The position numbers and the translations under genes are program-made. A DNA stretch of 64,000 nucleotides from Takakia lepidozioides (taxonomy: Eukaryota > Plantae > Bryophyta): NCBI GenBank assembly GCA_030704615.1, contig CM060732.1:36580001-36644000 (forward strand), read 5' to 3'. The notes under the pieces are model-generated. The model was not told the origin of the DNA. It searched no databases and saw only the letters and a program-made list of their open reading frames with translations. Below are positions 1-39,025 of the stretch, piece by piece (positions within the stretch are counted from its first letter, which is position 1; the number at the start of each line of letters is the position of its first letter).

Positions 1-620
1 GAGATGGTGCGGGGTTTTGCGCCACTTGCAGCTTCATCAAGCTGTATCTCCAGCATACATCTTGGAGAATGTGCCACTGATGGGCGATTCTCGGGCCAGG
101 GTGATGGCCAGTGTGCATCAAGTCCGGTCGTGGCTTGGTCAGCAGTGTTGCTAGATGCAGCTACAGTGGGGTCACGGGCTCATCGTCCACGGCTATGGTG
201 GACTAACTTGATGCCACCGCACTGCTCAAGCGTGCATTTGATGGGGTGTGGCAGCGGCCAACACTCACAGTGGATAACATTCTGGACACAGGGAGGCAGT
301 CTCAGCGTGTGAGACACGATGACCGTTCGCCTTTGGCAGTGGTCAACAAGGTGGGTCAACCACGAGCAGCATTACCTACACTGCTCAGCTTCCCAGGATC
401 GCATCTGATTCCGGGATAGTGGACCTGGCCTCCTGTGGGATGCTCAGTTGCAGCAGTTAGTGGAGCCTAATGCTGACGAGCGTGAGCGGGCAATGGGTTT
501 ACCACTGGTACCACGGCGGTGTCGTCTCTTTCTGAGGCATCACGTCGTCAAGTGTTGGGGCAAGCAATGGATCTCAATTGCTTGACCTGGATTATCAGCT
601 TGGCTCTGGCTGAGCAACGC
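1..620 (+). pseudogene. C-terminal part of a DNMT3-like C5 cytosine methyltransferase catalytic domain (motifs VI, VIII, IX, X), frameshifted, inside the retroelement
   Basis: Manual translation across several 1-nt indels: EMVRVLRHL...PAYILENVP (ENV at 65-73) ...VLLDAATVGSRAHRPRLWWTNL (148-210) ...EPNADERERAMGFTTGTTAVSSLSEASRRQVLGQAMDLNCLTWII (~463-596). This is colinear with DNMT3A FENV / IDAKEVSAAHRARYFWGNL / EMERVFGFP..TDVSNMSRLARQRLLGRSW (from memory). Motifs I-V lie upstream of the window. Confidence 0.85.
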
Positions 621-1067
621 AGAGTGCGGAGTACACTTCCCTCAATGGTCTCTCTGCCTACCGAGACGGTACAGGCAGTGAGGGGGGGCGAGCATGTGAG
701 GACCACGGGGTGCATGCATCCATGGCACACGTGGGAGGTGCTCGAGGTTCAGAGGGAGTTGGCAGCCAAGGCGGCTGTGATGTGATGGATGAGGTTGGGG
801 ATTCTTCTCGGGTTGAGGAGGTCCTCAAGGATGAGATGATGGGGCAGGAGATGAGCCTTGTCATTGACTGAGCAGGCAGGGAGTACTGCTCAAGAGGTTG
901 CAGCATAGCAACCACTGGACGCGTCCTCTACCTCTAAGCCCACTGGACTTAAGGTTGCAGTTACGGAGGACAATTGGGAGCCTGACATTGGACCCATTGT
1001 CACCGGAGGAGAGAGACGACGTATACGGCGGTTCCTGAGGGCTTACAGGAATTGCTTTGCCTTCAGT

Positions 1068-2123
1068 TTGAAGGACTTGGGAGCACTGAAGGGTCAAGAG
1101 ATCCGTATTGAGTTGGCCACTGACACGCCAATCTTTCGGAGACCCTATAGATACAGTGACATGGAGAGGTCTTTGATTCAGATGAGGACTCAAGATCTCT
1201 GGGAGGCAGGTTTGGTGGAGCTCTCTGGTGGAGAGTATGCTTCAGCCACAGTGATGCCAGCCAAGAAGGATGTCTATGGCAATTGGACGGAGAGACGTAT
1301 GTGCGGTGATTACCGGCCTGTAAATCGTCAGACCAAGTCCGATAAGTATGCCATGCCAACACCAGAGGAGATCTTTGATGCCATCGGGCATGCTAAGGCC
1401 TTTAGCACTTTGGATTTACGATCCGGATATCACCAGTTGCCAATCAAGGAGGCGGACAAGCAGAAGACGGCATTCTGGGAGATCAATGAGCACGGCAAGG
1501 ATTGCCTATATCAGTGGCGGTTCTTACCATTTGGGCTTAAGAATGCTCCTGCAGAGTTTCAGAGAGTCATGGATAGGATTCTAGCAGGGGTGGACTTTGC
1601 TCGGTGCTACATAGATGACATCATCATCTTTAGTGTTACGATGGAGGAGCATGAGAGACCTTCAGGTGGTATTGGAGCGCTTGAGAGAGCGCACGGATTG
1701 AAGTTGCATCCGGGGAAGTGCAAGTTTTTCCACAACCAGATTGAGTATCTGGGTCACATGATATATCCTGGAGGATTGGGGGTACAGCAGACTAAGGTAG
1801 AGGCCATTGCACAAATTCCACGCCCCACGGATGTGAGCCGAGTTCGAGCTTTCATGGGGTTGACAAACTATTATAGACGGTTTGTCAAGGGATTTAGTAC
1901 CATTGCAAAGGCTCTAACCAAGCTGACCAAGGTGGACCAGGAGTGGCAGTGGGAAGATGAGCAGGAACGAGCTTTTCAAGAGCTCAAGGCGAGGTTGACC
2001 TCGGCGCCTATCTTGAGACGACCTATCAGGGGGCGTCCCTTTCAGCTGCATACGGATTGGAGCATGCTGGGGCTTGGAGCGGTGCTCACACATGTGGATG
2101 ATGGGGAGAGAGAGAGTTCGTAG
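1068..2123 (+). CDS. pol: Gypsy pol: reverse transcriptase and start of RNase H (frameshift-disrupted)
   Basis: ORF 1068-2123 with canonical RT motifs including YIDD. A short out-of-frame stretch near 1660-1690 and a frameshift near 2115 disrupt it. Confidence 0.93.
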   Translation: MKDLGALKGQEIRIELATDTPIFRRPYRYSDMERSLIQMRTQDLWEAGLVELSGGEYASATVMPAKKDVYGNWTERRMCGDYRPVNRQTKSDKYAMPTPEEIFDAIGHAKAFSTLDLRSGYHQLPIKEADKQKTAFWEINEHGKDCLYQWRFLPFGLKNAPAEFQRVMDRILAGVDFARCYIDDIIIFSVTMEEHERPSGGIGALERAHGLKLHPGKCKFFHNQIEYLGHMIYPGGLGVQQTKVEAIAQIPRPTDVSRVRAFMGLTNYYRRFVKGFSTIAKALTKLTKVDQEWQWEDEQERAFQELKARLTSAPILRRPIRGRPFQLHTDWSMLGLGAVLTHVDDGERESS

Positions 2124-4046
2124 TGGCTTACGCTAGCCGCTCGAACAACGCTGCAGAGGCTAAGTACAGCTCATATGAGGGAGAGTGCTTAGCTGCAGTG
2201 TGGGCCGTGGCACACTTCAGGTGCTATCTATACGACAATCTTTTCACCCTTGTCACGGATCACCAGCCACTCAAGTCGTTGATGGAGTCAGACAAGCTTA
2301 CGGGGAAGCTTGCACGGTGGGCACTTATACTCCAGGAGTATGACTTTCAGGTTGTGCATCGACCGGGTTTGGTCAATCGGGATGCGGATGGATTGAGTCG
2401 CAATCCATGCATGAGCCAGCAGGATGACACTGGAGCTCGGTGGCATGGTGAGACGGACGAGGAGATGGTGTCGGGATGGCACGCATCTGCATTTTTGTGT
2501 ATCTTGGCATCGGGAGGTCAGATTGGACCTACAACAGGGATGACTGTAGACGGAGTGTCTGAGGACCCTGAGGCTAGTGATGAGCTAGGTGGTGCCAGAG
2601 ATATACATGAGGATTCGGCTGTGTTGGACTACCTCCGCACGGGAGACACGGCAGCCATTGTGACTGCCAGGGAGAGGGATCGGATCCTGCAACGAGCCAA
2701 GAGGTTCAAGTGGGAGGGGATACACCTACTTCGAGTGTGGGAGGATGGTCGGGTGAGGATTGTGCCTCACCCCACACAGCGTGCACGGTTAGTGCGGCAT
2801 GCCCATGAGGAGTTGGGGCATTTTGGAGTGCGACGCACTCACAGTTTACTGCAGGGGCAGTATTGGTGGCGTGGTATGCATACAGAGGTGCAACAGTTCA
2901 TGGCTAGGTGCATGGTGTGTGACAGGGTGCGTGCTTCATTCAACGCCCCTACACCACAGTTGCATCCTTTACCAATCATGGGATTGGGCTACAGGTGGAG
3001 TCTTGACTTCGCAGGACCGTTGCCACTGACTATGCGCCACCACAGATATGTGTTGGTGATGGTGGAGCACTTCTCCAAGTGGATTGAGTTGGTTCCATTG
3101 CCTGACAAGGCTAGTGAGGGGGCTGCGTATGCATTCTTGGATCGTGTGCTTAGCCGATTTGGTGCTCCAGCTGAGGTACTCACGGACCAAGGGAGAGAGT
3201 TTTTGGGGGAGTTTCAGGCTTTGTGTGATAAAGCCTTGATAGACCACCGCACCACTTCTCGGGATCATCCTGAGGCCGATGGCTTAGCAGAGAGAGTTGT
3301 TCAGACGGTGAAGAGGGGTTTGCGCAAGTATGGCTTGCAGAAGGGACACCTAGGAGATTGGGATCTTCAGGTTTCTTGGTTAGCCATGGGCTACAGGTTC
3401 AGCAAACAAGCATCACTTGCCTCCTTCTCACCATATTTCCTTCTCTTTGGCCGAGAGCCGGATTTGCCTGCAGCCATTCGTAGGGACACTGCTCAAGTCC
3501 TTAACCTTGACGATCCGGACGTGTGGGTACGTGCATGTGATCAGCGTGCAGAGTTGTTCAAGAAAGTCATGCCCATGGCTTTTGAGAACCTTGCCATTGC
3601 ACAGCACCGTGATACGTTGAAGTATGCCACTATACGTGGTGGAGGATATCGTCCTGGGGTTCGGAGGTTTAGCCCTGGTGACTATGTTTATTTGCAGCAG
3701 ACTGCTCCTACGACTCTGGATATTACTGCAGGGCGTGTTATTCTGAGGGTTCGAGAGGTGTTGCCCTCAGGGGTCCTGATCTTAGAGGGTCGGGATGGCA
3801 TGACTTGGAAAGACCATGTGCGTAATTGTGCGCCATGTCACCTTCCCAATGTCGATGGCAGAGTTGACCCAAACTTGGCAGTGGTACCTGCAGGTTTGAG
3901 GTGCATGCTCTGTGGGTCTGCCAAAGGGGCAGCCACCATGCTGTGTGTGTGATCGATGCTCAAGGGGTTGGCATATGGGATGCTTGACACCACCTCTTGA
4001 GAAGGTTCCTGACGGAGATTGGTTGTGTCCACACTGCTTGGGATAG
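2123..4046 (+). CDS. pol: Gypsy pol: RNase H, integrase (HHCC, DDE) and C-terminal PHD finger (frameshift near 3945; stop 4044-4046)
   Basis: HAHEELGH...CMVC; WSLDFAGP, VLTDQG, GLAERVV. The C-terminus reads CMLC..[33 protein letters not shown], a C4HC3 PHD at 3902-4037. Confidence 0.92.
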
Positions 4047-4305
4047 TGGCAGTGGACATGACTGGAGGCAGCTAACAAGACATGGGAGGCCAAGCTCATA
4101 GGAGTCAATACATGAGATCCCAAGCTCAAGTTTCAGGTTGCAAGACGGCGACTAACGATGGGGCAACTCTTGCACCCGGCCTCTTGATCTATCGAGTTTG
4201 AATGTAGTAGGGATAGTGGTGGAGGACTTAGTGAGGCTATGGTCACTATCAGATCTTGTGGCTACATGGACTTAGAGGGACCTAAGCACCAGCTAGGGGG
4301 GCGAT

Positions 4306-5017
4306 TGTGTGGACTAGTGACTGCCATAGTGGGCTGCATAGTGGCAGCCTAGTGACTGACTAGTTGTAGCCTAGTGGTTGGACTAGTGGCGGCACTAGTG
4401 ATGAACTAGTGATATACTAGTGTGTGGTGTGCACATGTGTTGTGTGGTTTGGACAGCGATGTAGTTGTGTAGCGATATGTATGCGCACGACAGCTGTCAA
4501 GTTATTTTACCACTAGTGTGAAACTAGCTAGGAAATAGCTAGCTTTTACATATTGACATTTGGGATTGGCCCAAGTGTCAATCCAGGGGTCAAGGCAGAT
4601 TTAGGCCGTGGAGTGGTTATCTTCACGGCAAGCGCGGAAGGCTCATCTTTCTCGAGTTGAGCCTCACCGCGCCTAGCTATGGCGCCGTAGTGTGGATTCC
4701 CCATGGCATGGGGTGCACTTGGCTTGACTTGTATTTGAGTGATGAGGTTATATATGCATGAGTTTATGCTTCAGCTTTGTGAGCTCTCATGAGCTTGTGC
4801 TTGTATGTCGCTCTGCTCATCTTTATCATTGTGTGGACTAGTTATTGCCATAGTGGGCAGCATAGTGGCAGCCTAGTGACTGACTAGTTGTAGCCTAGTG
4901 GTTGGACTAGTGGTTGGACTAGTGGTGGACTAGTGGTATACTAGTGTGTGGTGTGCACATGTGTTGTGTGGTTTTGGACAGCGATGTAGTTGTGTAGCGA
5001 TATGTATGCGCACGACA
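4306..5017 (+). repeat. Putative 3' LTR of the DNMT-Gypsy element, with ~187-bp direct repeats at both ends (4306-4492 and 4830-5017)
   Basis: Starts TGTGTGG just after the PPT and ends CACGACA. Two near-identical blocks are rich in ACTAGT motifs, with TATATATG near 4749 between them. The 5' LTR and TSD are outside the window. Confidence 0.7.
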
Positions 5018-5094: not shown

Positions 5095-6160
5095 ACAAGA
5101 TGAGAGGGGCTGGTTGACGTGCTTTTTTACTTGCACTGGACCTCCTTCTTGTGTGTGATCTGCATTAGCAACGGCTAATCAGCCCTTGCTATACCAATTT
5201 TATGGAAAAAAAAATAATGAAAGGGGATGCTTACATGTGCGGTGCAAGAGCGGCTGGTTGGCCAGCCTTCCTACTTGCCCTCCTTTCCCTCCCATGCACG
5301 ATCAGCCGTAGCACAAGAGCAATGGGCTAATCAGCCCCTCTTTTAACAAAAATTTAAACAACTAAAAAAATAAAGCTCAATGAAAGGGAGTTACAAGCGG
5401 GTAATGGGGGCTGGTTGGTAGGTCCCTCCCTGCTTTGGGCTCCCTCCCTCTCATGCAGAATCTGCCATAACAGAAGCCAAAGGGGCTATCTTATCAACCC
5501 CCAATTGTATCAAGAATTAAAAAAATTTAAAGAAAGGGAAGATACTTACCAGTGGGTATTGTGGGCTGGTTGGCGGGGCCCTCCTTGCTTGTGCTCCCTC
5601 CAATGTAAAATCTACCATAGTGGAGCAAGGGGCTATCAGCCCCTTGGTATATCATCAAAGAAAACAGGAAAAAAAAAAAGAAAAAAAGAAAAAAAAAGAA
5701 TGATGATCAATGATTACCATGGACCAAGGGGGCTGGATGCAGGTGGGGCCCTCCTTACTCGTCCTCCCTACACCACATGCCATAGCACAAAAGGAGGAGG
5801 CTGATTAGCTTCATGGTGAACTAAAGCTAAAAACAGTAAAATAACCAAAAGTGGTGAATGCTTACCAACAAGGGGCTGGTTGATGACGGGGCTGGTTGCG
5901 CGGGCCCTCCTGCTCGCACTTCCTCCCTCCAATGCGCCACTTACCACAATACAAGAGCATGGGGCCATTAGCTCCGCTGAACCAAAAAATTATAAAAAGA
6001 CGAGAACATGTGGATGTTCACCGACAACAAGCGACGGCTGGTTGGCGGGGCCCTCCTGCTCACACTCCCTCCCTTTGTGTCCACCACCTGCCATAGCAGC
6101 AGAAGAGAGATCAGCCCCCTCTTGTGCGATAAACTGAGAAGAAAAGAAACAAACAACACA
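5095..6160. repeat. Degenerate tandem array of ~7 units (~155 bp), probably the subterminal repeats of a DNA transposon
   Basis: Recurring GGGGCTGGTTGG..GGGCCCTCCTGCT..CCATAGCA..TCAGCCCCT..poly-A, starting near 5105, 5250, 5406, 5563, 5728, 5871 and 6035. Confidence 0.65.
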
Positions 6161-7103: not shown

Positions 7104-9949
7104 ATGTGCTTTTTTTTAAATCTCAAACCTCCTCCATCTTGCATTGGAAATTAACACCAAAATATTATGCAATATCTTATCAATTTTCTCTTTTACCATA
7201 GATTGTTTTTTTTGTGTTTTGTACATATTGAAGAACATCATATATTCCTTAAAACCATTAAATTATATATAAATGGAAATACTATCCATACCCGGAAACT
7301 ATTCATACCCTCAGGGTATATTTTGGCATATATATCCATACTAGGGGTTATATAGAAATCTGAAAAGTTAATTTACCCATACCCGGAGGGTAAATAATTT
7401 CTTGAGATTTCAATTTATCCATACCCGGAGGGTAAATGATTTGACAAAAATAACTTACTTATACCCTAAGGGTATATTGAAATCAATATACCCGCACAAC
7501 ACTTGTCTTGACCCTAAGGGCCCACATGGAATCCATGCAAGGAATGTTAGGGAAGGTTCTAGAATGGAGGAGGTTCTAGAGATATGCCAAGGTCATTATA
7601 GTCAATATGTGCCCTCAATCATTCCAAAAAGAAATTAAGAAGATTAGGAGGATCATGTGCTTCTTTTACGGCATTACGTTTCTCATGTTCCTACTCCTCT
7701 TGTTGTTCCTCTTATCACTCTTCCACTCTTACAAATACCACTTTGAACTCCTCTCCTTTTCCCAGCATCTAGGTCTCGGGGTGATTCCTCCCTTGTAAGC
7801 ATTCACGGCCTCCAGTGTAGTTATTTTTTCCACCTAATTCAATGTAATCTGGGACTTTGCTCCTTTCAAAAATAATAATAATAATAAGTAAAGAAAATTG
7901 GACGTGCAACAAGCTCTTTGAACAAAAGTGGCTATAGCATGTGGGCCCACATGGCTTCATGCATGCCATGTGAAAGTAGCAATTGCATGTTGGGGCCATA
8001 TGGAATGGAGGCCAATTTGACAAGAGAAGGTTTTAGATTGGATCAGGTTCTAGAACTGTGGCATGGTCATTTTAGCTAGCTATGGCCAAAGAGGGAGCTG
8101 GGGAAGAGATGGAGGGTCCGGTAGGGAGCGTAGAAGAGGTGGGATCAAGGGAGTACAAGAGGAGAGGGAGGGTCGATTAGTTGGCGGCAAGATGGGCAAG
8201 GCACCAATGGCAACGCCAAGGGCTCATCGGCATGGGATAGAGCTATGTTTTAGGTCCGGTTGTACATCACATATTTCTCTCTCGCTCTCTCTTGAAGTTG
8301 AAGTGTACAAGTGGATTGGTTTTCATTATGACCTTCTTAGCAGTATCATGTGGGCTAGTATAACAAGCGACGAGTTTTATGCCCACATATATTTTTATTA
8401 TGTCATGTTCTTTGTATTCAAGGGTGAATTTTGATCTCAAAATTACATCTCCGATGCACTATTTTGTATTCCAATACGACGCGATATGCCTCTATACCGA
8501 TTTTACATGAGATAGGAGATGTAAACCTCTATCAAGATTAAGGTTGCCCCGTTGCTTGGAAAAACTAAGAGGTACGGGTCCAAGTAGTATGTTAGGGGTT
8601 AAATTAGTACACCTATTATATCTTGCGTTGTCTAATTGTAAGTGGGCATGGGCACTCTGGCCGCACTTAGAACATGTAGGATATATACCTCCATTAAAAT
8701 TAACTCACAATAACAAACTCGTGTAATTTCATTCGAATGCACTTCCGGACTCTATATCCATGAGTTGCACCAATGTTGAAAAATAATATGAAACGATCAA
8801 GGAAATTATACTACTTCTTGCAAAATGCAAAACATCTCTCTTTTCCAGACATGTTCATATGACATATTTGCTCAAGATATGTATGCAAAACACCAATTTG
8901 CATTCTATATAAACAAGAAATCTACATACTTTGGTCTCGAATCTCGAATAATTGGTAGAAAGTTATCTTGTTCTTCTTCTCCGAGAGCCTATCATTGCCT
9001 CCACTTTCTCTTCTCTAGGTTGATTTGGGTTGTTCAATATGTGATAATGGCCTAGCAAAGGGCATTCTGTGAAATAAAAGCAAGCTAGTCGCTAGGATGG
9101 TAGCCCAATATTTCACATAGTATTGTCCTTATGAGGTCATTATCCTGCTTAATCCCTAAATGACGACACAACCCGTCATTTTTCATCCACCACGTGTCTT
9201 CCGTGGATGAAACTTGAATGAAAGTGTGCCCTCAACAACAAAGGCCCCCCCCCCCTTTTGTCCTCTACACGCTCCAACATGAAAACAAGCCTTGCAAACC
9301 TCTACTACGGTTGCATTTCTATCAGGAGCACCTCATATCATAACGGATGAGGATGAATTCAGCGCAATCGGCTCCGATGAGGAGTTTGAAGACTTGAGTG
9401 ACAAGGATTTGTGATCAGATGAGGAACTTCTCCTAAAGCCACATGCTCACCGGGTACTGGCAACAACTACCGCGCCTCGGAGGGAGGTTATGCGAAGGAA
9501 GGTAGGACTAGAGGACGCGGTCAAGTCCCTAGGTCCGGGATTAGACAAATGTGAGTCTAATGCAGACTAATCCCGCCATTCTCCTCCTGAGGAATTACCT
9601 CCTGCTCCTGCAGACCCATCTGTTCAGTATAGAAAAGAGCTCGGTGATTAACTTGAACTCGGGGAAGGTTGAACGGTCACTATGGAGTGCACCATCACCT
9701 CCTTGCCATGGTTTTCTCCAAACTCACAACCAGACATTAAAATCGTAGAGGAGGCCGACCTAGAAAGGGATGTCATATTGAAGCATAGCCCCCCTACATC
9801 CATATTTGCAGCAGGGTTCAAATGGATCTCAGTTTGAAGCCGGATCAACCTTTACATCAGAACCAACAACTCAATTGGTCGACAGGACGGTAGGAAGAAA
9901 ACAGCCAAAGCTATGTGATGCATGCGCAAAAAAGGGCCGCACATGGTGA

Positions 9950-11419: not shown

Positions 11420-13679
11420 ATGGCGTGTCTCAGGTGTGCAGCGCCACTGTCCGAGATCTTCTCCACTTGCCAAGTGCTCAAGCACAATTGCAAAGGCTAC
11501 GGAGTTGCGGGGCATGCACCAACACATGTGAATGCCCATATTTCTTCCGAGGCAGGACCTTCCAGAGAAATCCGGTTGAAGAGTGGCGTGCGGAGGGGGA
11601 TGCAAAGAGGGCGATCTGAGAGGATGTGTGTGGCCAGCGTAGAGGCACCAGAGGTATCAATAGAGACAATAGGGTCAGAGCTCTTGGAGCAGAGGAGGGC
11701 GATTCAGGAGGAAGAGGAAAAGAACAGGACCTTCAGAATCCAGGAGGTCGACACTGTTGAGCACCAAGACTGGCATTCTGCCAAGGTCATTCATGTCCAA
11801 GATGTGGCCACTGGAATCCGCTGCATCACTGTAGAGGCAGAGGTGTCGAGAGAAGTACGTCTATATTTTTCCTCCTCAAAGTGTGTCTGTGTGTATTGTC
11901 AACAGGTTTTGTATAGCAGAGGGATGGGTGGCGTGCCTGTTTCACGTCCCTACAACTGACCTTTATCAAGGATGAACAATTCTCTGGGATCTAAGCATAT
12001 GGTACAAGAGAGGAAAGGGACGGGGCACTTTCATTCTTGATGAGACCGAGATTTGCCGGATTGAAGTGTAGTTGATCCCATTTCATCTTCTTACCGGGAT
12101 TCTTTACTAGTTGGCTCATCGTTCGCCAGCACAAAGCCGTGAGGGCGAACATTTTCAGTTTTCATCATGAGTCACATGCTTGGACAAGTAGTATTTTGTG
12201 TTTAATGACATAGTGGAGGTTGATTACGGCATGGCCTGTGTATCATAATCCGCCCAATGTCTCAGATGGTGGCGCTGGATAAGGCGTACACAAAGCCTGG
12301 ACAGATGGCCCAAGTGAAGGTGGGTGGCAAGGAAGTGAAGATTGCAGTCTCCAGTCCTCCATTTTCTGCAGTTATCAATGCTCCGGTGCTGTACAAGCTT
12401 CGAGGAGACATCCCTGCAGGCACCACAAAGCTGCCGCAGTTCTCTCTATCTGTGAACGCCCCCTTGGACCTCCATGTGGAAGAAGCAACTTCTGCAGTTT
12501 TCAATCTTGCCGTGGGTAAATTTTGCTCAATACCATACACAGATACACATGCAGCATAGATACTGTACAGAGGGAGCCTTCAAAATGTACACGTATGATC
12601 CGGTTATGTTAGGACACATTCGAAGTGGGGAGGTCCACATTTGTTGACCTACTCAGTTTGCCTGTCCTTACTTTCCGAATGTGCAACACATGGTTGGGCG
12701 TGAAGATGACAGGCCTCCTTAATAGGGTGAGATTCTTCTGGTGGTAGTCTTGTAGAGAATCCCATTATAGTCGTGCTCATTGCTACACTATGTATTATAT
12801 TACTTGTTAGATTCTAAGATGGGTGCGTAGATTGGTGCAGGAGAGGAGTTGGAGGTGGGACCATTTGAGGCAACAGACCTGGACTTGCGGCCTGTGATGT
12901 TTTTGGCCCGCTTCCCAACTCTCACCCTTTTCGCACAGGGGGCTGGCATTGCAGTTGCGCGCTCCATTCTTGAAAACAAGGATGGTGATATGGGCAGTCT
13001 TAACCTGAGTTTCCGTGACGATGTTCGCTTGTACTACTCCGCTCGCAAGCCATCCCTGCTCGCATATCAGGTATTGTTTATCACGAAGGCTTTGGAGCTA
13101 AATGGAATCTACGAAAGGGAGCATTCCAACAAGCATTCTTACTTGGCCCCAAACAGTCTGCTTTCTCTGTTCCAACATCAGGAGGAAAGAACAATTAGGT
13201 TGGGTTATTAAAGAAGTGTGAATTGAAGGAACTGGAGAAGGGAGTTACACAAAGCAAGAATGTGAGGCAAGTGAGTCATTCACCTGCCTGCCGACATTTT
13301 GGACTAGTTTGCTCACTCGAGTGAGACATCCAGTCCTTGTTTTTCTCCCGCCCTTATCATTGCATATCATACTGAGTGACTTGTTTGACTCATGCTAAAA
13401 TGGATATTCTAACATGTGGCTTTGGACTTCCAGCAAAAGTTCACCGAATGGGAGGCCAAAAAAGTGAAGGTCCGTGCAACTGTTGATGACAAGTCAGGGG
13501 AAGACTGGGACGGATATGTGGGTTCATTCAGCTCACTATGGGATGAGGATGACATAGAATATGACCCTGAGACCACGGCAGCTGTTGTCTGCGTGGAAAA
13601 GGCAGCAAGGAAGGAGGTAATGGATGTACTTGCAGAGGCTGGCATCCCAGAGAATCAGATTGTAGCATGGGACATCTAA
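11420..13679 (+). CDS. Plastid FAD/NAD(P)-binding oxidoreductase, FNR-like (pKIWI502/At1g15140-type family); exons 11420-11854, 12266-12515, 12841-13070, 13434-13679
   Basis: Three GT-AG introns splice in frame. Transit-peptide-like N-terminus; motifs YTKPGQ, IAVSSPP, FAQGAGIA, LYYSAR, WDGYVG and a terminal AAVVC. Confidence 0.8.
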
Positions 13680-18988: not shown

Positions 18989-19852
18989 ATCTCTTGTTTG
19001 TGTTCAGTCATGTTCTCGTCCTTGACATTAAGGGCTTTGAAAGCCCATTGTTGTTCATCCCGTAAGGTAGCCGAGACTGTTTCCTCTAGAGAGTGAGGGC
19101 TGTTGTTGGATGTGTTGCCCTTAATTATATTAGCCCAAGATGAAGCCTCTGTCTTGAGAGCTGGGTGTTCCCGGGCCATTGTAGACGTCGCAATTTTGTG
19201 TGTTTCCAGCTCTTTACTAAGGGATTCTACCTGCTGGTGGATGTTTGCCGTGAGGGGATCTGGGAGGTCCTTCTCTGTGAGGGTCTTCACTTCGGCCTCT
19301 AGTTCTGAAAGGTGCGCAAGTGTGGATTTCTCATTGTGTTGTTTCAACAAACCACGTAGTTTGCTATTGTTCTCCTGAAGAGAGACCCGCAAAGCGGTGA
19401 CCTCAGCTCGTTCCATATGTTTGTCTCGAGTAACCATCGACTTCTCCAAGTTCCTGTCTCTGTCTACCATTCGTTTCAGCTCGTAGTTGGCAGCGAGCGA
19501 CTTCTCCAAATCCATGTCTTTGTATGCCATCCGATTCTCCCACTCTTTGTCTCGGGCAACGACTAGTAATTGCTGCAGAGTCTCTTCAAAAATGCATCTA
19601 GTTTGCAGGATAGTGATTTGGTCCCGAAGCATTTGAACATCAGCACTCCTCGTGGAGTATTGACGCAATGGAGAGGTCTGTTGAGAGATCGGGGCAGGAA
19701 GAAGAAGCAGAGGGGACCCAGGGTGGTGTGAGTGAGACGGGGAGTCTACATCATCGCCAACTGTCCTTTGGTGGTTGGATGAGGACATCGTGGGGTGGAG
19801 GCGGCACTGGCGCGCCAACGCGCGTGAGCCGAGCGTCGACGTGCTGACACGC

Positions 19853-19912
<60 letters not shown>

Positions 19913-20590
19913 GAAAGCAAGAAGGAGAAAATGTGGTCAAAGACCTTATACCGTGTCAAGGCTCCGACTGGTGAGTTGTGTTGAGTCTTCCCTGCCTCTT
20001 AGCAAAGCAAGAGAGCCCATCGTTGTTTTACGCTTGTTTATAACCTCTTTCATAGTAACCCCATTCATAATGAGCCATACAACCTGAGGCCAGTTGAAGA
20101 AGGCCACAAAATTCGACAATACCGCGTGACACCCCCAAGATTCGGACCTTGAATTAATTGGGTGACAGAGGATGCACTATCCACTAAGCTACCTATTAAT
20201 GGTCAATTTCACGTTATGAGTTCAAGATGGCACTTCAATACTTTTCTTTTCCTTTCTTAAAGAAAGGGGATAGGGGCCTTTAAATTTATTGAAAAATAGG
20301 AAGGTAACAACCCATGAAAAAATAACCCGGTGGAAGGCCATGAAGGCAGAGGTAGGGACCAGTGTTGGCCGGGTATTGGGTTCGAAATCCATACCCGGCC
20401 GGGTATTCAAGCGGTTATCAATATGTACATACCCGGGTCAAAGCAAATTTTGAGACCCGGGCATGTGGATATCCAACGGTTATTACATGTTGAAGTACCC
20501 GATGTGACCACCGGGTCTCGTCTCAAGCACATCTCGCACCTTAACCGCCGCTCCATCAGTTTTTGGCTACGTCGGTTATCAATCGAATCT
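18989..20590 (-). mobile_element. Inverted 5' part of LINE copy 1 (upstream flank, 5'UTR, ORF1 N-terminal coiled-coil half, first ~40 bp of the solo LTR)
   Basis: Reverse complement of ~29988-31338 joined to 38058-38246. It lacks the chromovirus and shows an empty site with a single TCTAC. Confidence 0.85.
19855..19908. repeat. (GA)27 microsatellite in the LINE 5' region; paralog is (TC)14 at 30633-30660
   Basis: Direct reading of the sequence. Confidence 0.95.
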
Positions 20591-20594
20591 ACGG

Positions 20595-23500
20595 TCACCA
20601 CCCTTATTCAGCAAAACCTTGCTCTACCACGGGGAGCGAGTGACATTCAACGGGCTTGGCGTGCAGGAACTTCGGAGCACAAAGTCATATTCATTCGTTT
20701 CAAGGATAAAAGTGCTCACTACTACAATGTGGGGGGAGGGTGATTAGCGAGACACTAACCAACCTATCAGTTACAAAACTTACACACAAACGTAGGATTT
20801 AATTATACATAAGGTAATTCATGCAGACATCGGTTGCTCGTCGAGACCGCAAAGCGACACTTCTCGCTTGCTCAAATGTAAGCGACGTCTCTGACGTCGT
20901 TTTTCATGCACCATTTACCGCAGAAACCAAAAAATGACTCAGACGTCTCTAAAAGTGACTTAGCAAAAATTCAAAAATTCAAAAATTCAAAAAAATTAAA
21001 AAAACGACCCCCATGGCGTCGCTCCAATTCAGCGACCCCCAGGTCGTCGCATTTTTTTTTAAATAATAATATTTATTATTATTATTTTTTCCGGGGTGCT
21101 TGAAGCGATGCCCTTGGCATCGCTACCTCCCAACCGACGTCGGAAGGTCGCACCAAGGCCGACCCCAGTGCATCGCAATTAACGAGGTTTATTTTTATTT
21201 TTATCAGATGCAACGCCTGAGGCGTACAGTGTAGGACTTGGTTATTTTGGGATTTTCTGTTGTTGAGGTGGTCGAGATAGCAACCCCTCTACCGGGGTTG
21301 CTCTAAATTGGAACGACCCTCTGGGCGTCGCTAATTCGCCTGCAACGTCGGTGTCGCACGGTTCCGTGTGCACCAAGCCGTGGGCGTCGTTAAACCCCCC
21401 ATAATTGCAGTAGTGGCTCGGGATAGGGTCATCAGACAGAGGCCTCCATTAAGAGGCCGTCAGGGTATGTACCTAAACGATGATTTGATCCCCCTGCAAT
21501 ACAAAGCCATGCGGGCGAAACTCTTGCAGGTCAAACAGGCTCGGGCTTGGGGACACTACGTAGTGTACCGAGATGGGAGGGTAAATATTGTCCGAGAGTA
21601 AGAGCGTTGCCCCTCTAATTCTAAATAGGGGTTGGGGCCCCATGAGACCAACGTACGCCACATCTACACATTGGCTCATGGAACTGTAATGGATCATTGT
21701 GGAGCCTTCCCCAAGGGCTTCTTGATATTCTTTCCAAGTGTGATGTCATTTTTCTCTTGGAAACACATGCGTACGAAGGAAAGGACCCTCCTTCTATTCT
21801 CGGTTATAGCTTCCAGTTAGTGACTCATCCACGTACAGGTCTCAAAGGATCTGGTGGAGTGGCTGTTACTTTGCGGACTGGCTTCTCCCATTTATCTCCT
21901 TCCCATACAAAGACCCACTGGCAAGCTGGTACATTTGATGTCACATTAAAGGCTACAACCCAGCTCAACCAGACATTCTGCTGGCGGGATGTTATTTTTC
22001 TCGACCCGACCCTACATCTCCGCACAGCGCCCTACAAATGCACACAGATTCGCCATATGTTCCATTGGAGGATATGTCCGGTCTCCGTATCCCACACACA
22101 GACAATGTGTCATATTCTTGGTTGGAGATTTCAACGCCCATACATGATTACTACAGGCCCCCACCTTCAACCCCACAGATCCTCTACATATCCAACACTC
22201 ACATATAGGCTTGGAGAGGCAAAGTGCGGATGTCTATTGCAAAATCACAAACTACGGTCACCATCTACTCAAGTTTTGTGAAATTCAGGCCTGGCTTGTC
22301 ATTTACAATGGCACAATCAATTTAAAATCCTCCAGCCAGTTCACCTGCCACACGTACAAGGGCCAGAGCGTGGTCGACTATCTCTTGGGGAGCCCCAACA
22401 TGACTGATAGGATAAGCTCTTTTTACATCACGGGGTACTCGGATTCTGATCCCTCTTGCCTTTCCTTTGCATTTTATTCCATCTCTCTCCCCGTGAAGGG
22501 ATGCTCTGCTTCTCTCCCTTTACACCCACGGATTCACTTTAATACCCTCTTCTCTCACTTACACGACGCCGAGTATGAAACATGACTAGCGTCAATCCTC
22601 CTCTCCAATTCTAGATCTACCATCTCCTAATGACAAGGCTACGCATCTTACTCACGCCCTTTGGGACTCAGCCCTACGATCCTTCTCCGTCACCCTTCCA
22701 TCTATCTCCTCACCCTTCGGACCCTCTTGTTGTTATACACCGTTTTATGATGAAGAATGCAAGCTGGTTGCAGCTAGACGGTGACATCAAATCTCTGCTA
22801 CTTGATATCCATTCTTCTCCAGATTCCACAAACCTAGCTCCTAAGCACTATAAGTCCCTCATTAGGACCAAAAAGAGAGCCTATATTCTCAAGTTGCAAT
22901 CTTCTTTCCTTACAAAAATAAGATTTTCTCCCCGTTCTTTTTTGTCCCTCCTTAAACCAGCTCACAAAGACCCTCCCCCAATCACTGACATTCATGTCTG
23001 GCATGAGTATGCCCAGTCTTTGTACCATTCCCCAACCCAAACTCCCCCTCCCATAACCTCTAAACCCCTACACTTCTCTCTCTTTACTACAGCCAATGTC
23101 AGCAAGGTTATCAAGAAGCTGCAAAATGGCAGGGCAGTGGATATTTCAGGACTTCATAGTGAATTCATCAAGCACGTTGCACCTACTTTAGCCCCTATAG
23201 CTCACCTCTTCAATGGGGTAGTGCAACGTGGCTTTCCAACAAAGTGGACAAAGAGCATCTCTTGAAGAGCGGTGACAGGCTCGCACCGACCAACTCTCGC
23301 ACTATTATGATGTCCTCGTTATTGGCTAAACTATTTTGGGCAGTAGTGGCCATGGAACTGGACGATTGGGCTGAATCCTCTCACATACGTGCTAAAGGAC
23401 AGGCTGGTTTCCGTCGCAACAAATCCACTCTTGACCACATTTTCACTCTTCTGGTTATGGTGGAACGTGCATGCTATAGCAAAAAAATGGTTTATGTTTG

Positions 23501-24164
23501 CTTCGTGGACTTTCACAAGGCTTTTGATTCAGTTCCTCAAGACCTTCTCTTCCAACAGCTCCATAGAGTGGGAGTCCCTCCAGACATCCTATATGCCATC
23601 TCTTCTATGTATGAGATTGACAGTGGCATGGTCAACATCGTTGGTAGAGGTCCAGAGCAACATTGGAGTCAAACAGGGTTGCCCCCTAAACCTACCGGCC
23701 TTTTCGGGATCTACATTGACGCCTTGGAGGTTTACTTATCAAAAAACCATGGGTGTTGGGGTACCATTGGATGGGGGACCAACAGAATCAGATCTCCTCT
23801 ACGCTGATGATGCAGTTGCCCTTTTGGCACAATCTCCTGTTTTCCTGCAACGTCATCTCCACAGTTTGGAACAGTTCTCCAGAGACTATGGGCTGCAAGT
23901 CAATCTTAGCAAGACCAAGATCATGGTCTTCAATGGCCTGACTGATCGTAGATTCATCTTCAACCACCAGGAAATTGAGATTGTGAAATCATACCGGTAT
24001 CTGGGTCTGGTTATCCACTTTGCAGCAATTGCCCTGGACAGGTTGACTAAAAGTAAGGCGGCCTCTGTCCGCCTTCAGGGCAAATGCAAACAGATACATC
24101 TGCGTCACCCCCCAACCAAAAAGTGGTTGTTTGACAGCGTGGCCATCCCGGCTGCCATCTATGG
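20595..24164 (+). mobile_element. LINE copy 1: ORF1 3' half (interrupted by CACTA) and degenerate ORF2 (APE endonuclease + RT)
   Basis: ORF1 IQRAWRAG..IFIRF / LRGRQGMYLNDDL; EN motifs IGSWN, FLLETH, VGDFNAH, SVVDYL; RT motifs QAGFR, FVDFHKAFDSV, GVKQGCPL, LYADD, YRYLG. Many frameshifts. Confidence 0.9.
20717..21415. mobile_element. Non-autonomous CACTA element, 699 bp, TSD GCT
   Basis: CACTACTACAAT ... ATTGCAGTAGTG termini flanked by GCT on both sides. Removing it restores the LINE ORF1 frame (KDKSA-RDRVIR). Confidence 0.92.
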
Positions 24165-24498
24165 GGGGCATGCTAAATTGTGAGCGGCTCACGTGAGCAA
24201 AAAAAACTGTGAGCAAGATTCTACTCACAGTTTTCGCCCTATTACCACAAAACATTACCTGCTGGAAGCCCTATTACCGTGGGCTTCAAGCGTCGAAAAG
24301 GGAGCATTTTTTTTTGAAGAGTGAGCATGCGGGTTAGCAGCAACATTGTGGAGTGGTTGATTGATGTTTGATTGTGTTTTGAAAAGGAGTTGGATGAAAG
24401 GAGTGGATGAACAATGGATGAATGTGCGATGGAAAAAGATGGATGAGAAAGAGAGTGGATGAATGAAAACGACGAATTCAGACCGGGGACCGCTAAAT
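24165..24498 (+). mobile_element. Left end of a Mutator-like element (MULE) inserted in LINE ORF2
   Basis: Preceded by the 9-mer CATCTATGG (24156-24164). Terminus GGGGCATGCTA..GTGAGCGGCTCACGTGAGCA is an imperfect inverted match to the end at 41781. Confidence 0.7.
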
Positions 24499-26161
24499 AC
24501 CTTCACAATTCAGAGCGGCCTGAGGGAAAAAATAAACCCCGTTCATTTTTTATTTTATTGGCTCTCTTGACTTTGCAACATGTTCAAGTCCATGGAGAAA
24601 TGAAAGGAAATGAAATGGTGCTTCATAATGTCCGCGGAAAGCTCATAGAGCTTATGGGACAAAATGGAAGAAAACATGAGAGAGGAAACGAAACCCAAAG
24701 CCAAGAATAAGAACTATTGTTCGAATGATTAGACTTGAAGGCCTCGTGCAGGTAAGATGCCAAGCATTTCTGATCCTCATAGTGGAAGACTTCAGTGAGA
24801 GATTGGGTTCCATGGAATAAACAGTGGAATCTCCCACGGATCTCATAGTATAGGGCAATAGAAGAAGAAATGTTCTTCGGTTTTAATTTCCCAGCTGCGC
24901 CCTATGCAAGGTGGACATAGGCGGTCTTCCCGCTGCAGGGTTTTCTATCTGTCAGTCTCTATCCATAGGTTGTGGGAACCCACCCTGAACCGCCCCAATG
25001 CTCTCAAGAGGGAAGGAGATAAAGATACCAAAAGGTGGTTGGGCCTCAAGATTCTATCATCTCATAGCACCAAGAATGTCTCACGATAGAAGTGGAGCTT
25101 CGTCGTGAGATTGGGTAGCTTCCAAGTTCTCTTGACATGTAATTCCATAAGCTCTCTCCTAATGAGTCAGTTGCGATCCTGTCTAGATGTGATGTCCACC
25201 CCTTCTGGATTCATTGGTAATAAGGAAGCAGTAGAGAGTTCGTGCGCTGAAATAAACTATCCACTCGAGCATACCAAGAGTGCCTGAAACCTGTAGCTTT
25301 GAGCCTCATAGATGTTGCGAGGGCTTTTGCCATGAGCCCCTTGGGTGATAAGGCCTGTAATCTATGAAGAAAGATTGTAAGCCGGAAGAGGGTCTCGGTT
25401 ATGCAATGGCATGCATGCGAACTCTGCACCTAGGATATGAGATGGAGTTGTGCTTCTAGCGCCAAGCATTGCTTGGAGAAAAAATGACTGCAATGGTTCC
25501 AGATTCTTTTCACGCTTTGTACACTAATCGTGAGCAGAATCCTTAAGCATGAGCAGATTAGGGAAGCAGAGCCTACATCCGAATACAGGGCCTATTGCCG
25601 TGGACGCAAACTGTTCTGAATGCAAATTCACGTAGGCGGCGAGGGACCACTCCATGTCGTGCTCCATGCATGCAATGTGGGATGAATATGTCATTAAAAA
25701 CGGACGGATGAAAGAGGCATGGATGAATGAAAGAAGGTGATGGATGGATGATGGATGAACCTGAAGAGTGGAGGATGCATGGACTGAGATAAAATTGATT
25801 GTACGGCAAACACGGCATTGACGACAAATTCTATACCCGGGGAAATACAGGAAAACCGTAACTACAAACACTGATCCCGCAACCCAAATTTCAAACCCCC
25901 ATGGAAAACCATAAACCGAAAACCCATGCCCGCAACGATAAACCCCAAACCCCAAACCTCAAACCCCAAAGGAGAAACGGAAGCCAGAATCCCAGAACAG
26001 TAACCCTAATTCAAACGGCACATGGGAATCCAACCCAAAAACCAATTAAAATATTTAAAATCAAAACAAAACCTAAGCAAACAGCCATGTTCTACCATTG
26101 AAACAGGTTGGGCATTAAGAAGGCGTCATTCGCAGCCCTCACAAGGAACATGACAATTCAA
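24499..26161 (-). repeat. Inverted block in copy 1: LINE ORF2 3' end and tail plus MULE right-end sequence
   Basis: Reverse complement of ~41151-42843, with a ~90-bp deletion near 25510 that removes the MULE terminus and TSD. Confidence 0.85.
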
Positions 26162-29073: not shown

Positions 29074-30629
29074 TTAAATTTAAATTTGTGAGCTTGGGTT
29101 GTGGTATTACTAGCTTGAATTGTGAGCGAGTTGCGTGGCCACGGGTTTTTTTTCATTTAAAAGGAAAAAAAGAAATAGGTGCAATTCTGTCGCGGGCGGC
29201 CCATTGGAATTGACTTGCTAAATCGAAAAAAGTCCGGCTTTGGGGGTGACAAAGATGAGTTGTGGGTTGTGGGCTGCTAAAGAAGGTGTTCAGAAGATAA
29301 GGGCCGGTAACCCTTTGCAATGTACAGCACCAGGTCCTCTAGATGCTCGTCCGATTTCTTTGTATGGATTAGTTGAACCAAATAAAGTCTCCGTTATCGC
29401 ACATCCAATAGGTAGAAAGCGCTTCTAGCCTGTCGAGCTGGCTCGGAAGTTGCAATCGATCTGGTCATTTGATGAGCACAACCAAATCATGCTCAACAAG
29501 GAATTCCAATTGATGTCCATCCATGTCTCCCTCAATACCAGTGAGCTTAAGTCTAGTTTCTTATATGACTCATCGCAGAACTTGAGGGTGGACCAAATCG
29601 ACTGGAAGATAACGGTTAACAGCAAAGAAAGACCACGTCAAAAAGTTGCAGTTGTAATGTTACCAAAATGTAGATTGAGTCTGCAACATAAGTAAATGTT
29701 GGCTGAGAAGCTCTGTAAGTGGGCCCTCCATGACACCTCCATCACGATTTGCACTCTCTCTGTCAGCTACTGTGGCATTTGCCTGGAGATCAGACGAGGA
29801 GGAAGCCATGGTAGAAATAGATCTCACACGAACGCACCCTAACTACAGACACAAAATATGACAATCCACATAACTTCAGAACACACAAAACTGAAATATC
29901 CTAGCATTAATAATTACATGATAGACCAAAGATCACAAGATTGTCCCCAAGCCCGAGAAAGAGCTGGTTGCGCATTTATGAAGTGACAGATTTGATTGAT
30001 AACCGACGTAGCCAAATACTGATGGAGCGGCGGTTAAGGTGCGAGATGTGCTTGAGACGAGACCCGGTGGTCACACCGGGTACTTAACATGTAATAACCG
30101 TTGGATATCCACAGGCCCGGGTCTCAAAATTTGCTTTGACCCGGGTATGTACATATTGATAACCGCTTGAATACCCGGCCAACACTGGTCCCTACCTCTG
30201 CCTTCATGGCCTTCCACCAGGTTATTTTTTCATGGGTTGTTACCTTCCTATTTTTCAATAAATTTAAAGGCCCCTATCCCCTTTCTTTAAGAAAGGAAAA
30301 GAAAAGTATTGAAATGCCATCTTGAACTCATAACGTGAAATTGACCATTAATAGGTAGCTTAGTGGATAGTGCATCCTTTGTCGCCCAATTAATTCAAGG
30401 TCCGAATCTTGGGGGTGTCACGCGGTATTGTCGAATTTTGTGGCATTCTTCAACTGGCCTCAGGGTGTATGGCTCATAATGAATGGGGTTACTATGAAAG
30501 AGGTTATAAACAAGCGTAAAACGACGATGGGCTCTCTTGCTTTGCTAAGAGGCAGGGAAGACTCAACACAACTCACCAATCGGAGCCTTGACACGGTGTA
30601 AGGTCTTTGACCACATTTTCTCCTTCTTG

Positions 30630-30669
<40 letters not shown>

Positions 30670-31338
30670 TGTCAGCACGTCGACGCTCGGCTCCCGCGCG
30701 TTGGCACGCCAGTGCCACCTCCACCCCATGATGTCCTCATCCAACCACCAAAGGACAGTTGGCGATGATGCAGACTCCCTGTCTCACTCACCCCACCTTG
30801 GGTCCCCTCTGCTTCTTCTTCCTGCCCCGATCTCTCAACAGACCTCTCCATTGCGTCAATACTCCACGAGGAGTGCTGATGTTCAAATGCTTCGGGACCA
30901 AATCACTATCCTGCAAACTAGATGCATTTCTGAAGAGACTCTGCAGCAATTACTAGTCGCTGCCCGAGACAAAGAGTGGGAGAAACGGATGGCAGACAAA
31001 GACAGGGACTTGGAGAAATCGCTCGCTGCCAACTGCGAGCTGAAGCGAATGGTAGACAGAGATAGGGACTTGGAGAAGTCGATGGTTACCCGAGACAAAC
31101 ATATGGAACGAGCTGAGGTCCCCGCTTTGTGGGTCTCTCTTAAGGAGAACAATAGCAAACTACATGGTCTGTTGAAACAACTCAATGAGAAATCCACACT
31201 TGCGCACCTTTCAGAACTAGAAGCCGAAGTGAAGACCCTCACAGAGAAGGACCTCCTAGATCCCCTCACGGCAAACATCCACCAGCAGGTAGAATCCCTT
31301 AGTAAAAAGCTGGAAACACACAGAATTGCGACGTCTAC

Positions 31339-32066
31339 TGTCGCGGCCCTTTGCCTTGAGGGCAGGGGGTCGGGACACATGAGGGGCTGCCCCTGTGGTG
31401 GGGGCAGCGGCAGCGATAGGTATGGGGGGACTGAAGCACCCTTGAGTGCCCAAGGCACTCAAGGAAGCGGAGGCGCTCACTAGGTGGAGCCCCGCACACC
31501 GGGTTGCGGTGGGGGTGGCTCCACAAGGGGTGGTGGTAGCTTAGCGGGACTTAGTGGGGGTGGCATAGGACTCACCATGGGGGCAGAGACCTCGTGGTGG
31601 GAGTCGTGGGGAGTCTTGGGACTCATCACGGTCCATAGGGGCCGTGGTGAGTGGGCCAAGACTCACCGCGACTCATCACCGGGAGTCGAGGGTTTTCGTG
31701 GTGGTTCGCCATAAAATGGCATGGCTAGTTGTGAAACCCCTGCGGACAGCTACAGAAGTATATATAGGGAGTAGTAACCCCGAGAACGGTGCAAGCCCGT
31801 TGGTGACCAAAAACTAGTGAGTAAGCGAGCGAGCCGGAAAGCGACCAAAGAGTGGGGAGCTGTTCCGGACTGCCAACTACCAAAGGGAATTCCCGCTGGT
31901 TCCAAATCGGTGGAGGGTTCTTTGGGAGAACAAAGGGGGACCATTATGCCCCGGTGAGCAGCCGAAGCTCCAAGTTGGTCCGACGGCCAGGTTGGGAGTC
32001 AGTCGCGCGCATCAAAGCGAGTAACTATGACTTGAGGGGGAGCTTGCCGAAGTGAGGTGCGCGACA
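31339..32066 (+). repeat. 5' LTR of chromovirus
   Basis: TGTCGCG...CGCGACA; TATATATA at ~31759; about 13 substitutions versus the 3' LTR (counted by eye). Confidence 0.97.
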
Positions 32067-32068
32067 CT

Positions 32069-32080
32069 TGGTATCAGAGC
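32069..32080 (+). promoter_or_regulatory. Primer binding site for initiator tRNA-Met
   Basis: TGGTATCAGAGC, 2 nt after the 5' LTR. Confidence 0.95.
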
Positions 32081-32121
32081 TTAGAGTTCAGTACGCGATC
32101 GTCCTTGGGATTGGCCTCATC

Positions 32122-35100: not shown

Positions 35101-36419
35101 TCGACGTGGATATCCATTACAAACCGGGACGAGACAGCGTGGTAGCCGATGCTTTAAGTAGAAAGCAGCAGCTCTTGTTGGTGTACAAGGGCGAGACGGC
35201 GCTCCAAAGGAAGATCCGGAAGGCTTGCCGGAAGGATGAGCTGGCGAAGTCCGTGATGCAGGACTTGAAGATGGGGGTTAAATCGCAGTTCCACTTGCAA
35301 AATGGAAAGCGGGGCTGTTACAACCCTTGCCGATTCCAGAGGGAACTTGGGAAAGCGTCTCGATGGATTTCATGACTGCTATGCCGCTGTCAAAAGGATT
35401 CGATGCAATCATGGTGGTGGTGGATAGGTTCAGTAAAATGGGTCATTTCATCCCCACCAAGGAGACGGCAACGGCACAGGAAACAGGGCGACTTTACTTC
35501 GCCCACGTCTTAAAGCATCATGGAGTCCCAAAGGATATTGTCTCGGACCGCGATCCAAAGTTTACGAGTAAATTTTGGAGGACACTTGATGGGGACGAGG
35601 CTGAAGATGAGCACCGCCTTCCGACCTACGACCGACGGCCAAACAGAAAGAGTGAATTCCGTAGTGAAGCAGATCTTGCGGAATTACGTGTCGGCAGACC
35701 AAACAGACTGGGTGGAACACTTAGACGCGGCAGAGTTCTGTTATAATAACACAGAACACTCCGCAACGGAAGTTTCCCCTTTTGTATTGGTCTATGGAAA
35801 AGCACCGGTGCCGACAAGTTGGGCCGCCCATGACGTTGAGGAACCGGCAGTAGCGGCGGTACTAGAAGAACGCGAGCGTTTGTTGAAGCTCGCAAAGTAC
35901 AACATTGCCAAAGCTAGGAAACGGTATGAAAGGCAGGCGAATCGGAAGCGGAGGGAAGTGAAGTTTGAGGCAGGCACGGAGGTCTGGTTGAACATCAAGA
36001 ATTTCTGACTACCTCCGGAAGTGAGTCCAAAGTTCGTACCTCCGTATGCGGGACCCTTTCGCATCCGGAAGGTTATGAATGAGGATGTGTATGAATTGGA
36101 GCTCCCGGCAAACAGCAAGGTGCATCCAGTATTTCACGTCTCCCTTTTGAAGCCTTACTTCAAAGATGAAGCGCGTCCGAATCGGCATCAAGTGTTGCGT
36201 CCGCAACCTGTGCTGTTGGATCATGAAAATGAACCTGAGTACGAGGTGGAGGCAGTACTTAAGTCGAGGAGGTTCAAGAACCGAGAAACGGAGTATCTCG
36301 TCAAATTGAAGAGCTATCATCATGTGGAGGCATCTTGGGTGCGTGCCTCAGAAATGAGAAACGCATCCGAGGCGGTTGCAGTTTTCGAAGGGCGACCTCA
36401 AAAGCGGAAGAAGCGTTGA
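32122..36419 (+). pseudogene. gag-pol: Chromovirus gag-pol with disabling mutations
   Basis: Gag (stop at 32959-32961, then in-frame [14 protein letters not shown]), protease [26 protein letters not shown], integrase SMDF/SDRD/GQTER, GPF motif, chromodomain YEVEAVLKSR..YLVK..SW and terminal KRKKR. Frameshifts near 34680, 35305 (HHCC region deleted) and 35585; stop near 36006. Confidence 0.93.
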
Positions 36420-38052: not shown

Positions 38053-38207
38053 TCTACGATGGCCCGGCACCAAGCTCTCAAGACAGATGCTTCATCTTGG
38101 GCTAATATAATTAAGGACAACACATCCAACAACAGCCCTCACTCTCTAGAGGAAACAGTCTCGGCTACCTTACGGGATGAACAACAATGGGCTTTCAAAG
38201 CCCTTAA

Positions 38208-38839: not shown

Positions 38840-39025
38840 CTTAACATCCGGGTCACTGGATTAAAACTAGGGAACCTTGCAGATGACGACCCTCTTGGCG
38901 CGATCACCACCCTTATTCAGCAAAACCTTGCTCTACCACGGGGAGCGAGTGACATTCAACGGGCTTGGCGTGCAGGAACTTCGGAGCACAAAGTCATATT
39001 TATTCGTTTCAAGGATAAAAGTGCT

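Follow-up and report, generated by a model that had tools for sequence, protein, structure and literature searches.

Structure of the element

The window, a 64,000-nucleotide stretch of the Takakia lepidozioides genome, opens in a dead copy of a Ty3/Gypsy retrotransposon that carries a cytosine methyltransferase (MTase) broken by frameshifts (Table 1). What remains of the enzyme is spread over three frames, with changes of frame near 140, 215, 405, and 498, and its motifs I to IV lie before base 1, outside the window. The peptides quoted by an earlier sequence-only reading of this DNA are all present at the coordinates it claimed, and the unpermuted, DNMT3-like motif order that it proposed is borne out by intact relatives, in which the order is canonical. 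A profile made from 26 relatives matched the forward frames over profile positions 129-174, 172-292, and 194-335 (of 336), with domain E values of 1.5e-12, 1.2e-24, and 2.3e-38 among the six frames scored; the three reverse frames gave E values of 0.8-5.4, which is chance level. The order of the pieces follows that of intact relatives and leaves no space for introns, and the first is 71% identical to Marchantia Mp4g09160. A check against PF00145 had also been proposed; in a Pfam scan this family matched 0 of 5 MTase pieces from the window and did match the intact relatives, where it covers motifs I to VI, the N-terminal half. The enzyme had further been described as lying directly upstream of the Gypsy reverse transcriptase (RT), without introns. 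It is indeed intronless, but the junction is not direct, the two being separated by about 90 linker codons and by an in-frame TAG (906-908) that is conserved.

Table 1. Features in the window, with the evidence or remarks for each
Feature	Position	Strand	Evidence or remarks
DNMT3-like C5 cytosine MTase, C-terminal half	1..632	+	family profile; tblastn to proteins of Marchantia and of the Calypogeia cluster; PF00145 matched in intact relatives
MTase motif VI (ENV)	65-73	+	YILENVP in frame 2
MTase motif VIII, LDAATVGSRAHRPRLWWTNL	151-210	+	frame 1
MTase motifs IX-X	about 478-570	+	ERERAMG in frame 1 at 478-498, then VSSLSEASRRQVLGQAM in frame 3
Poorly conserved linker ending ORF1 (Gag-protease-MTase), decayed here	633..905	+	
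In-frame stop TAG CAA CCA between MTase ORF and RT	906..914	+	agrees with UAG CAR YYA, the leaky stop of the TMV type; putative readthrough site
RT and RNase H	909..2340	+	RVT_1 about 1293-1763, PF00078 E 8e-28; PF17917/PF17919
Predicted long RNA stem	919..1022	+	5' arm about 919-935, 3' arm about 1005-1022
Integrase zinc finger and DDE-type core	2771..3271	+	PF17921, PF00665
C-terminal PHD finger and Pol stop	3900..4046	+	PF00628 E 2e-8; frame change near 3945
Polypurine-tract-like G run	4293..4303	+	abuts repeat B1; same motif in L005, L038, L081
Terminal repeat B1, CA end	4304..4492	+	followed by palindromic junction GACA-GC-TGTC
Repeat A2, TG start	4495..4827	+	partner A1 predicted at the element's 5' end, outside the window, from complete relatives
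Terminal repeat B2, CA end, right end of element	4828..5017	+	94.8% identical to B1
Four-exon host gene	11420..13679	+	introns; conserved in non-seed land plants

Downstream of the stop, the RT-RNase H part of the window copy has a single frame change, near 2110. The family has the Ty3/Gypsy domain order Gag-PR-RT-RH-INT with a DDE integrase. Gag itself was identified from its position and zinc-knuckle-like motifs, PF00098 being matched in distant relatives only.

The terminal repeats of the element are split. The order B-A-B lies within the window, and A-coding-B-A-B is found in loci L005, L016, and L053; two full direct LTRs around the coding region were not found in these three or in the window. 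In complete copies the order is TG[A]-coding-G-run-[B]CA-nn-TG[A][B]CA, and 4-bp target duplications flank two of the three (AAGG in L005 and TCTC in L016), L053 being ambiguous. The internal B-A junction is kept in L038, L041, and L081; it resembles joined cDNA ends and may template or supply the ends on which the DDE integrase acts. Two further loci, L034 and L036 (about 9249-9600), have an internal deletion in which repeat A abuts the end of RT and gag, protease, and MTase are gone. To the right of the element end, degenerate repeats of about 150 nt extend from 5173-5637 to about 6130.

Retention of the methyltransferase across the family

A scan of metagenomes with the integrase region gave 263 related stretches, 80 of which were kept, and one locus (L081) was added from a prokaryote assembly. 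The MTase lies upstream of RT in 38 of the 40 loci in which an RT start is preceded by 1.3 kb or more of DNA, and in these mostly decayed copies ENV is present in 32, motif I in 31, and PC in 31. The DNMT3-like domain is a standing component of this Gypsy family, which has many copies. Three loci, L038, L041, and L081, show little or no damage and share the layout Gag-protease-MTase, stop, RT-RNase H-integrase-PHD. Their ORF1 consists of gag, an aspartic protease, and a PF00145 domain (E 1.8e-13 in L038), and is followed by one stop and then by ORF2, whose 1047 residues run from RT through RNase H and integrase to a PHD finger. The relatives contain the parts that the sequence-only reading had proposed to look for upstream, namely gag, protease, and motifs I and IV.

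The MTase of L038 contains FAGIG, GWPCQG, ENV, and HRPR in canonical order. Compared with PDB sequences, DNMT3 (A, B, or C) fills the first 29 of 45 matches, and a model of the L038 domain, which was used for fold comparison in place of the window copy, has a pLDDT of 92, with DNMT3A, B, or C in every Foldseek row listed (best E 5e-19). A purifying signal on the enzyme, which had been proposed as a check, is seen in the pair L038 and L041, where dN/dS is 0.11 for the MTase (319 codons), against 0.05 in RT and 0.44 in the linker, values that come from one pair with dS of about 1.5 and synonymous sites near saturation. The MTase is almost certainly encoded by the element and DNMT3-like.

The earlier reading had named copies lacking the domain as the sign of an incidental host DNMT3 fragment lying beside or inside one copy. 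L004 and L058, the two of the 40 loci without an upstream MTase match, could be read in this way, as could L034 and L036, which are without the whole gag-to-RT part. Against it, the domain is retained in nearly all loci and, in the intact relatives, is encoded together with gag and protease in one ORF, and the MTase and RT trees described below agree on the main groups, the exceptions being rearranged or deleted copies. Retention and the shared ORF refute the fragment explanation, to which we give next to no probability.

Tens of thousands of sequencing-run contigs from one organism (organism A) align along 1-5000, MTase included, and cover falls sharply after about 5000. This deep cover fits a large family, contig depth being different from copy number. 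Relatives of the element were not found in viral contigs, and prokaryote genome assemblies gave six loci, with L081 as the sole close relative. L081 (1-9285) is an intact member assembled as a circle, with a 127-nt end overlap, in a cyanobacterial genome assembly, and is most likely misbinned plant DNA.

Relatives in land plants and algae

The named MTase relatives are gene models on chromosome-scale contigs of Marchantia polymorpha and Calypogeia. The cluster of M. polymorpha has 18 members, 16 of them named, including Mp4g09160, Mp5g06330, Mp5g06860, MpVg00370, and MpVg00540. The integrase region has named relatives in Riccia sorocarpa and Sphagnum fallax, among others. For the alga Klebsormidium nitens there are integrase-region relatives only (55% and 44%), one of which bears a PHD finger, with too little RT or MTase for placement in a tree. 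A Streptophyta cluster of DNA_methylase proteins comes nearest in the ESM Atlas and serves as a lead only. Such ORFs appear as unlabelled DNA-methylase gene models and may distort counts of DNMT genes in bryophytes.

An MTase search of 50% representatives returned 274 proteins at E<1e-30 and 852 at E<1e-10. The 209 proteins that were examined show two layouts, with the MTase either before RT or between RNase H and integrase. A quick MTase tree of 109 rows, cut down from 178 by dropping at random 69 of the 99 distant rows that remained, holds element domains only. In this tree Marchantia, Calypogeia, L038, and L041 fall in a clade of 39 rows (SH-aLRT 98) whose proteins terminate soon after the MTase, except for a few Marchantia models and truncated proteins. 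Fused MTase-RT proteins fall outside this clade, and one group of them includes Closterium. Proteins of the second, internal layout make up a third clade (98), in which Scenedesmus alone is named. This internal layout is seen in the Gypsy Pol proteins P0355, P0319, P0326, and about 60 others, many of which have EC for PC in motif IV, and one of which is from Scenedesmus sp. PABB004. Almost every protein in the clade that holds the window element retains GWPCQG and ENV. An RT tree (88 of 147 rows after removal of near-duplicates, with no true outgroup) repeats the main groups, and in it the window groups with liverwort sequences (97-98). We infer that the clade with the stop is one of land plants, most of its members being unnamed. 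The central claim of the sequence-only reading, a Gypsy element with its own DNMT3-like MTase in a land plant, is supported by domain order, retention in the family, the neighbouring host gene, and the placement of relatives.

The closest element type described is KnitGypsy-Dnmt3 of K. nitens (de Mendoza et al. 2018, PMC5890265), which, in the available parts of that source, shares the common Gypsy domain set, an intronless and unpermuted DNMT3-like domain, DIRS-like A-coding-B-A-B repeats, and purifying selection on the DNMT. Its host is an alga, whereas that of the present element is a land plant. KnitGypsy-Dnmt3 has DNMT, RT, and RNase H in one ORF, as far as the peer-review file of PMC5890265 describes it, but here a stop separates the DNMT from RT. 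The present element also ends in a PHD finger, a domain that receives no mention in the main text of PMC5890265. It is probably a land-plant variant of the known algal type, probably with programmed readthrough. C5 methyltransferases are likewise carried by the retrotransposons SymbioDIRS-Dnmt3 and SymbioLINE-Dnmt (PMC5890265) and by EpiLTRs (bioRxiv 10.64898/2026.05.21.726589), and the first of these is DNMT3-like and CG-active (PMC5890265). As described in the accessible portions of these sources, they belong to other retrotransposon classes or DNMT clades, with a tyrosine recombinase or chromodomain in place of the DDE integrase and PHD finger found here.

Host plant DNMT3s (PpDNMT3a/b and MpDNMT3b, in the consulted parts of PMC6453930) have the same type of catalytic domain with canonical motif order. 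They are multi-exon genes with a C-terminal DUF3444, whereas the element domain is intronless, is without DUF3444 in Pfam scans, and lies within a Gag polyprotein. No report of a retrotransposon-borne DNMT in a land plant was found in the open-access literature available to us, although the "streptophyte" Gypsy-DNMT3 trees of two later papers may include land plants. None was found in the accessible parts of PMC11982613, PMC5009743, PMC11244446, PMC9516144, 10.1101/2021.02.12.428880, and 10.1101/2022.06.16.496473. A term search found no mention of Marchantia in those supplements of PMC5890265 and PMC12344493 that could be searched, and the available text of the REXdb paper (PMC6317226) does not mention a methyltransferase.

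A conserved in-frame stop between MTase and RT

The survey of the stop covered 51 anchored RT starts, three of them without upstream DNA, so that 48 junctions were scored. TAR CAR YYN is found at 41 of these 48 (33 with TAG, 8 with TAA), in frame in 39 of the 41. Two of the others keep TAG with CAA mutated to TAA, and five are rearranged or non-homologous; a sense codon replaces the stop at 0 of the 48. As controls, 816 decay stops within pol were checked: CAR comes next at 25 of them and CAR-YY-A/C at none. Of 4 terminal stops of Pol, none has CAR after it. About 34 of the 41 junctions come from one subfamily, which reduces the independent cases to about seven; this subfamily has CAA CCC or CCT, and CAA CCC, the most frequent form, differs from CAR YYA by one base. 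The exact CAR YYA is present in the window, L012, L038, L041, L081, L064, and a minus-strand copy in L053. Divergent junctions read TAG CAG TTA (L038), TAG CAA TCA (L041, L081, and the minus-strand copy in L053), and TAG CAA CCA (the window and L012), with unrelated flanking codons and with both RT subclades represented. Within organism A, in contig sets X1 (1704) and X2 (1319), which may come from the source sample, no variant of at least 2% occurs at 904-914, and positions 902, 903, 915, and 916 vary. The ORF1 proteins of Marchantia and Calypogeia end 71-74 residues past the MTase, as judged at the protein level.

UAG CAR YYA is the readthrough consensus of TMV and gives 6-10% readthrough in transgenic Arabidopsis and 32% in transient assays, according to the parts of PMC2754532 consulted. 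TMV-type leaky stops and the retroelements MuLV, SIRE1, and Tca2 share with the present element an in-frame stop, CAR YY, and a downstream polymerase (PMC2754532, PMC3159437, and PMC2194720, as partly available). In the readthrough retroelements these sources describe, the stop lies at gag/pol or pol/env, whereas here it comes after protease and MTase and before RT. From the motif and its conservation, it is likely that the stop is read through at a low rate; no report of such a site in these elements was found in open-access papers. The stop could instead be a true one, with RT and integrase produced by reinitiation, from a spliced RNA, or from a separate transcript. An ATG two codons past the stop, present at 32 of 41 junctions, would permit reinitiation in that subfamily, but it is missing in the window, L038, L041, L081, L012, L064, and L003. 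Some Marchantia models (P0027, P0031, and P0038) fuse MTase with RT, which may most simply reflect predicted introns. The way in which the in-frame stop of Tca2 in Candida albicans is bypassed has also been questioned, according to the portions of PMC2194720 available. On the other hand, ORF1 and ORF2 share a frame in 3 of 3 intact copies, and splicing or reinitiation gives no reason for keeping CAR YY. We regard a true stop as distinctly improbable. No RNA run was listed among the sequencing runs that contain the element. One run guessed to be RNA has a contig that spans 528-2708 with no joint listed at the stop; this contig may be DNA and is left out of the argument.

Readthrough signals of the alphavirus type have extended 3' stems that start about 10 nt past the stop (PMC3159437, in part), which the candidate stem of Table 1 resembles. 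In six junctions that were folded, a long helix is predicted to begin about 7-15 nt past the stop in every case, with z of -1.4 to -4.6. The 5' arm pairs with 3' arms of its own subclade at -12 to -34 kcal/mol, versus -4 to -17 for those of the other subclade. Among about 810 windows, the post-stop stretch pairs best in 24 of 36 copies, and the Takakia copy is not one of these. For L072, shuffled sequences equalled the stem in 413 of 2000 trials, and RNAalifold on four sequences chose a different 3' partner. These predictions are only suggestive of a 3' stem that would stimulate readthrough.

Proposed function of the methyltransferase

The role of retrotransposon cytosine methyltransferases has been an outstanding question since 2018, and the position of the stop is a new clue to it. 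With the MTase before the stop and RT after it, the element would want far more methylase and protease than RT and integrase. Most ribosomes would halt after the MTase, and a minority would read through into RT-RNase H-integrase-PHD. Made in Gag-like amounts, the methylase would be packaged in the particle, released by the protease, and act on new cDNA before or at integration, so that copies would arrive already marked, and the PHD finger could steer integration via chromatin. If readthrough occurs, methylation of the cDNA before or at integration is a slightly favored use of the enzyme. The model as a whole, in which a leaky stop yields methylase in Gag-like amounts that probably methylates the element's own cDNA, has in our judgment about an even chance of being correct. 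Self-methylation of cDNA is the role proposed for DIRS elements, and SymbioDIRS-Dnmt3 domains carry out de novo CG methylation in yeast (both from the available parts of PMC5890265). CpG depletion is no stronger in the element (0.55) than in the neighbouring host gene (0.48), and is thus uninformative on self-methylation.

An active methylase might instead work in the nucleus, where its targets would be host chromatin, repeats elsewhere, or the site of insertion, and leave the cDNA in the particle alone. PHD fingers are chromatin readers, and Pol terminates in one; a surplus of methylase would also suit a wider substrate. Gag-fused products of retroelements are, however, expected in the particle, and packaging would be the expected fate of this one. 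Host DNMT3 methylates moss heterochromatin, as reported in the sections of PMC6453930 consulted, but the DUF3444 of host plant DNMT3s is absent from the element enzyme. The methylome of K. nitens, as far as the sources consulted describe it, is land-plant-like despite such elements. Nuclear action is unlikely, while still deserving serious consideration.

The domain might also have been retained for nucleic-acid binding or RNA methylation, with no part in forming 5mC in DNA. KnitGypsy-Dnmt3, the closest described enzyme and the only one from a Gypsy element to have been assayed, gave no methylation in yeast, a result that its authors call inconclusive in the available parts of PMC5890265, and distant relatives have EC instead of PC in motif IV. 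Within the element's own clade, however, GWPCQG together with ENV is near-universal, and the fold matches DNMT3, not DNMT2. A role other than 5mC formation seems quite doubtful.

Marchantia polymorpha is transformable and has many intact-looking frames, and the function of the methylase is thus directly testable there. More speculatively, the elements may represent an old green-plant Gypsy-DNMT3 lineage, with an internal MTase, flanked by RNase H and integrase, in chlorophytes and one fused before RT in charophytes, whose land-plant branch gained a leaky stop that overproduces an active, self-marking methylase and shapes the bryophyte methylome. We hold this wider history only tentatively.

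Neighbourhood of the element

The host gene at 11420-13679 has 11 matches, five of them named: Sphagnum balticum, Riccia fluitans, Adiantum nelumboides, Calypogeia fissa, and Marchantia paleacea. Sphagnum is the best or near-best match in three exons (73, 79, and 68%), and its protein matches no Pfam family. The named matches are all from non-seed land plants, and these few references put the host in that group, probably with the bryophytes. A Pfam scan of 100 other ORFs of at least 98 residues found mobile-element domains only, plus one EFG_C match below the cut-off. At 31339-37624 lies a separate, young chromovirus-type Gypsy element (Gag, PR, RT, RH, INT, and chromodomain) with LTR stretches that are 99% identical and with no MTase match. 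A decayed LINE with endonuclease and RT occupies 20592-24180 and 38901-40933, its 5' part being duplicated at 97-99% identity about 18.2 kb apart. Long inverted repeats pair 18989-20590 with 29988-31338 and 38068-38246, and 24499-26161 with 41151-42843. Together, the LINE duplication and the inverted repeats suggest nested young insertions.
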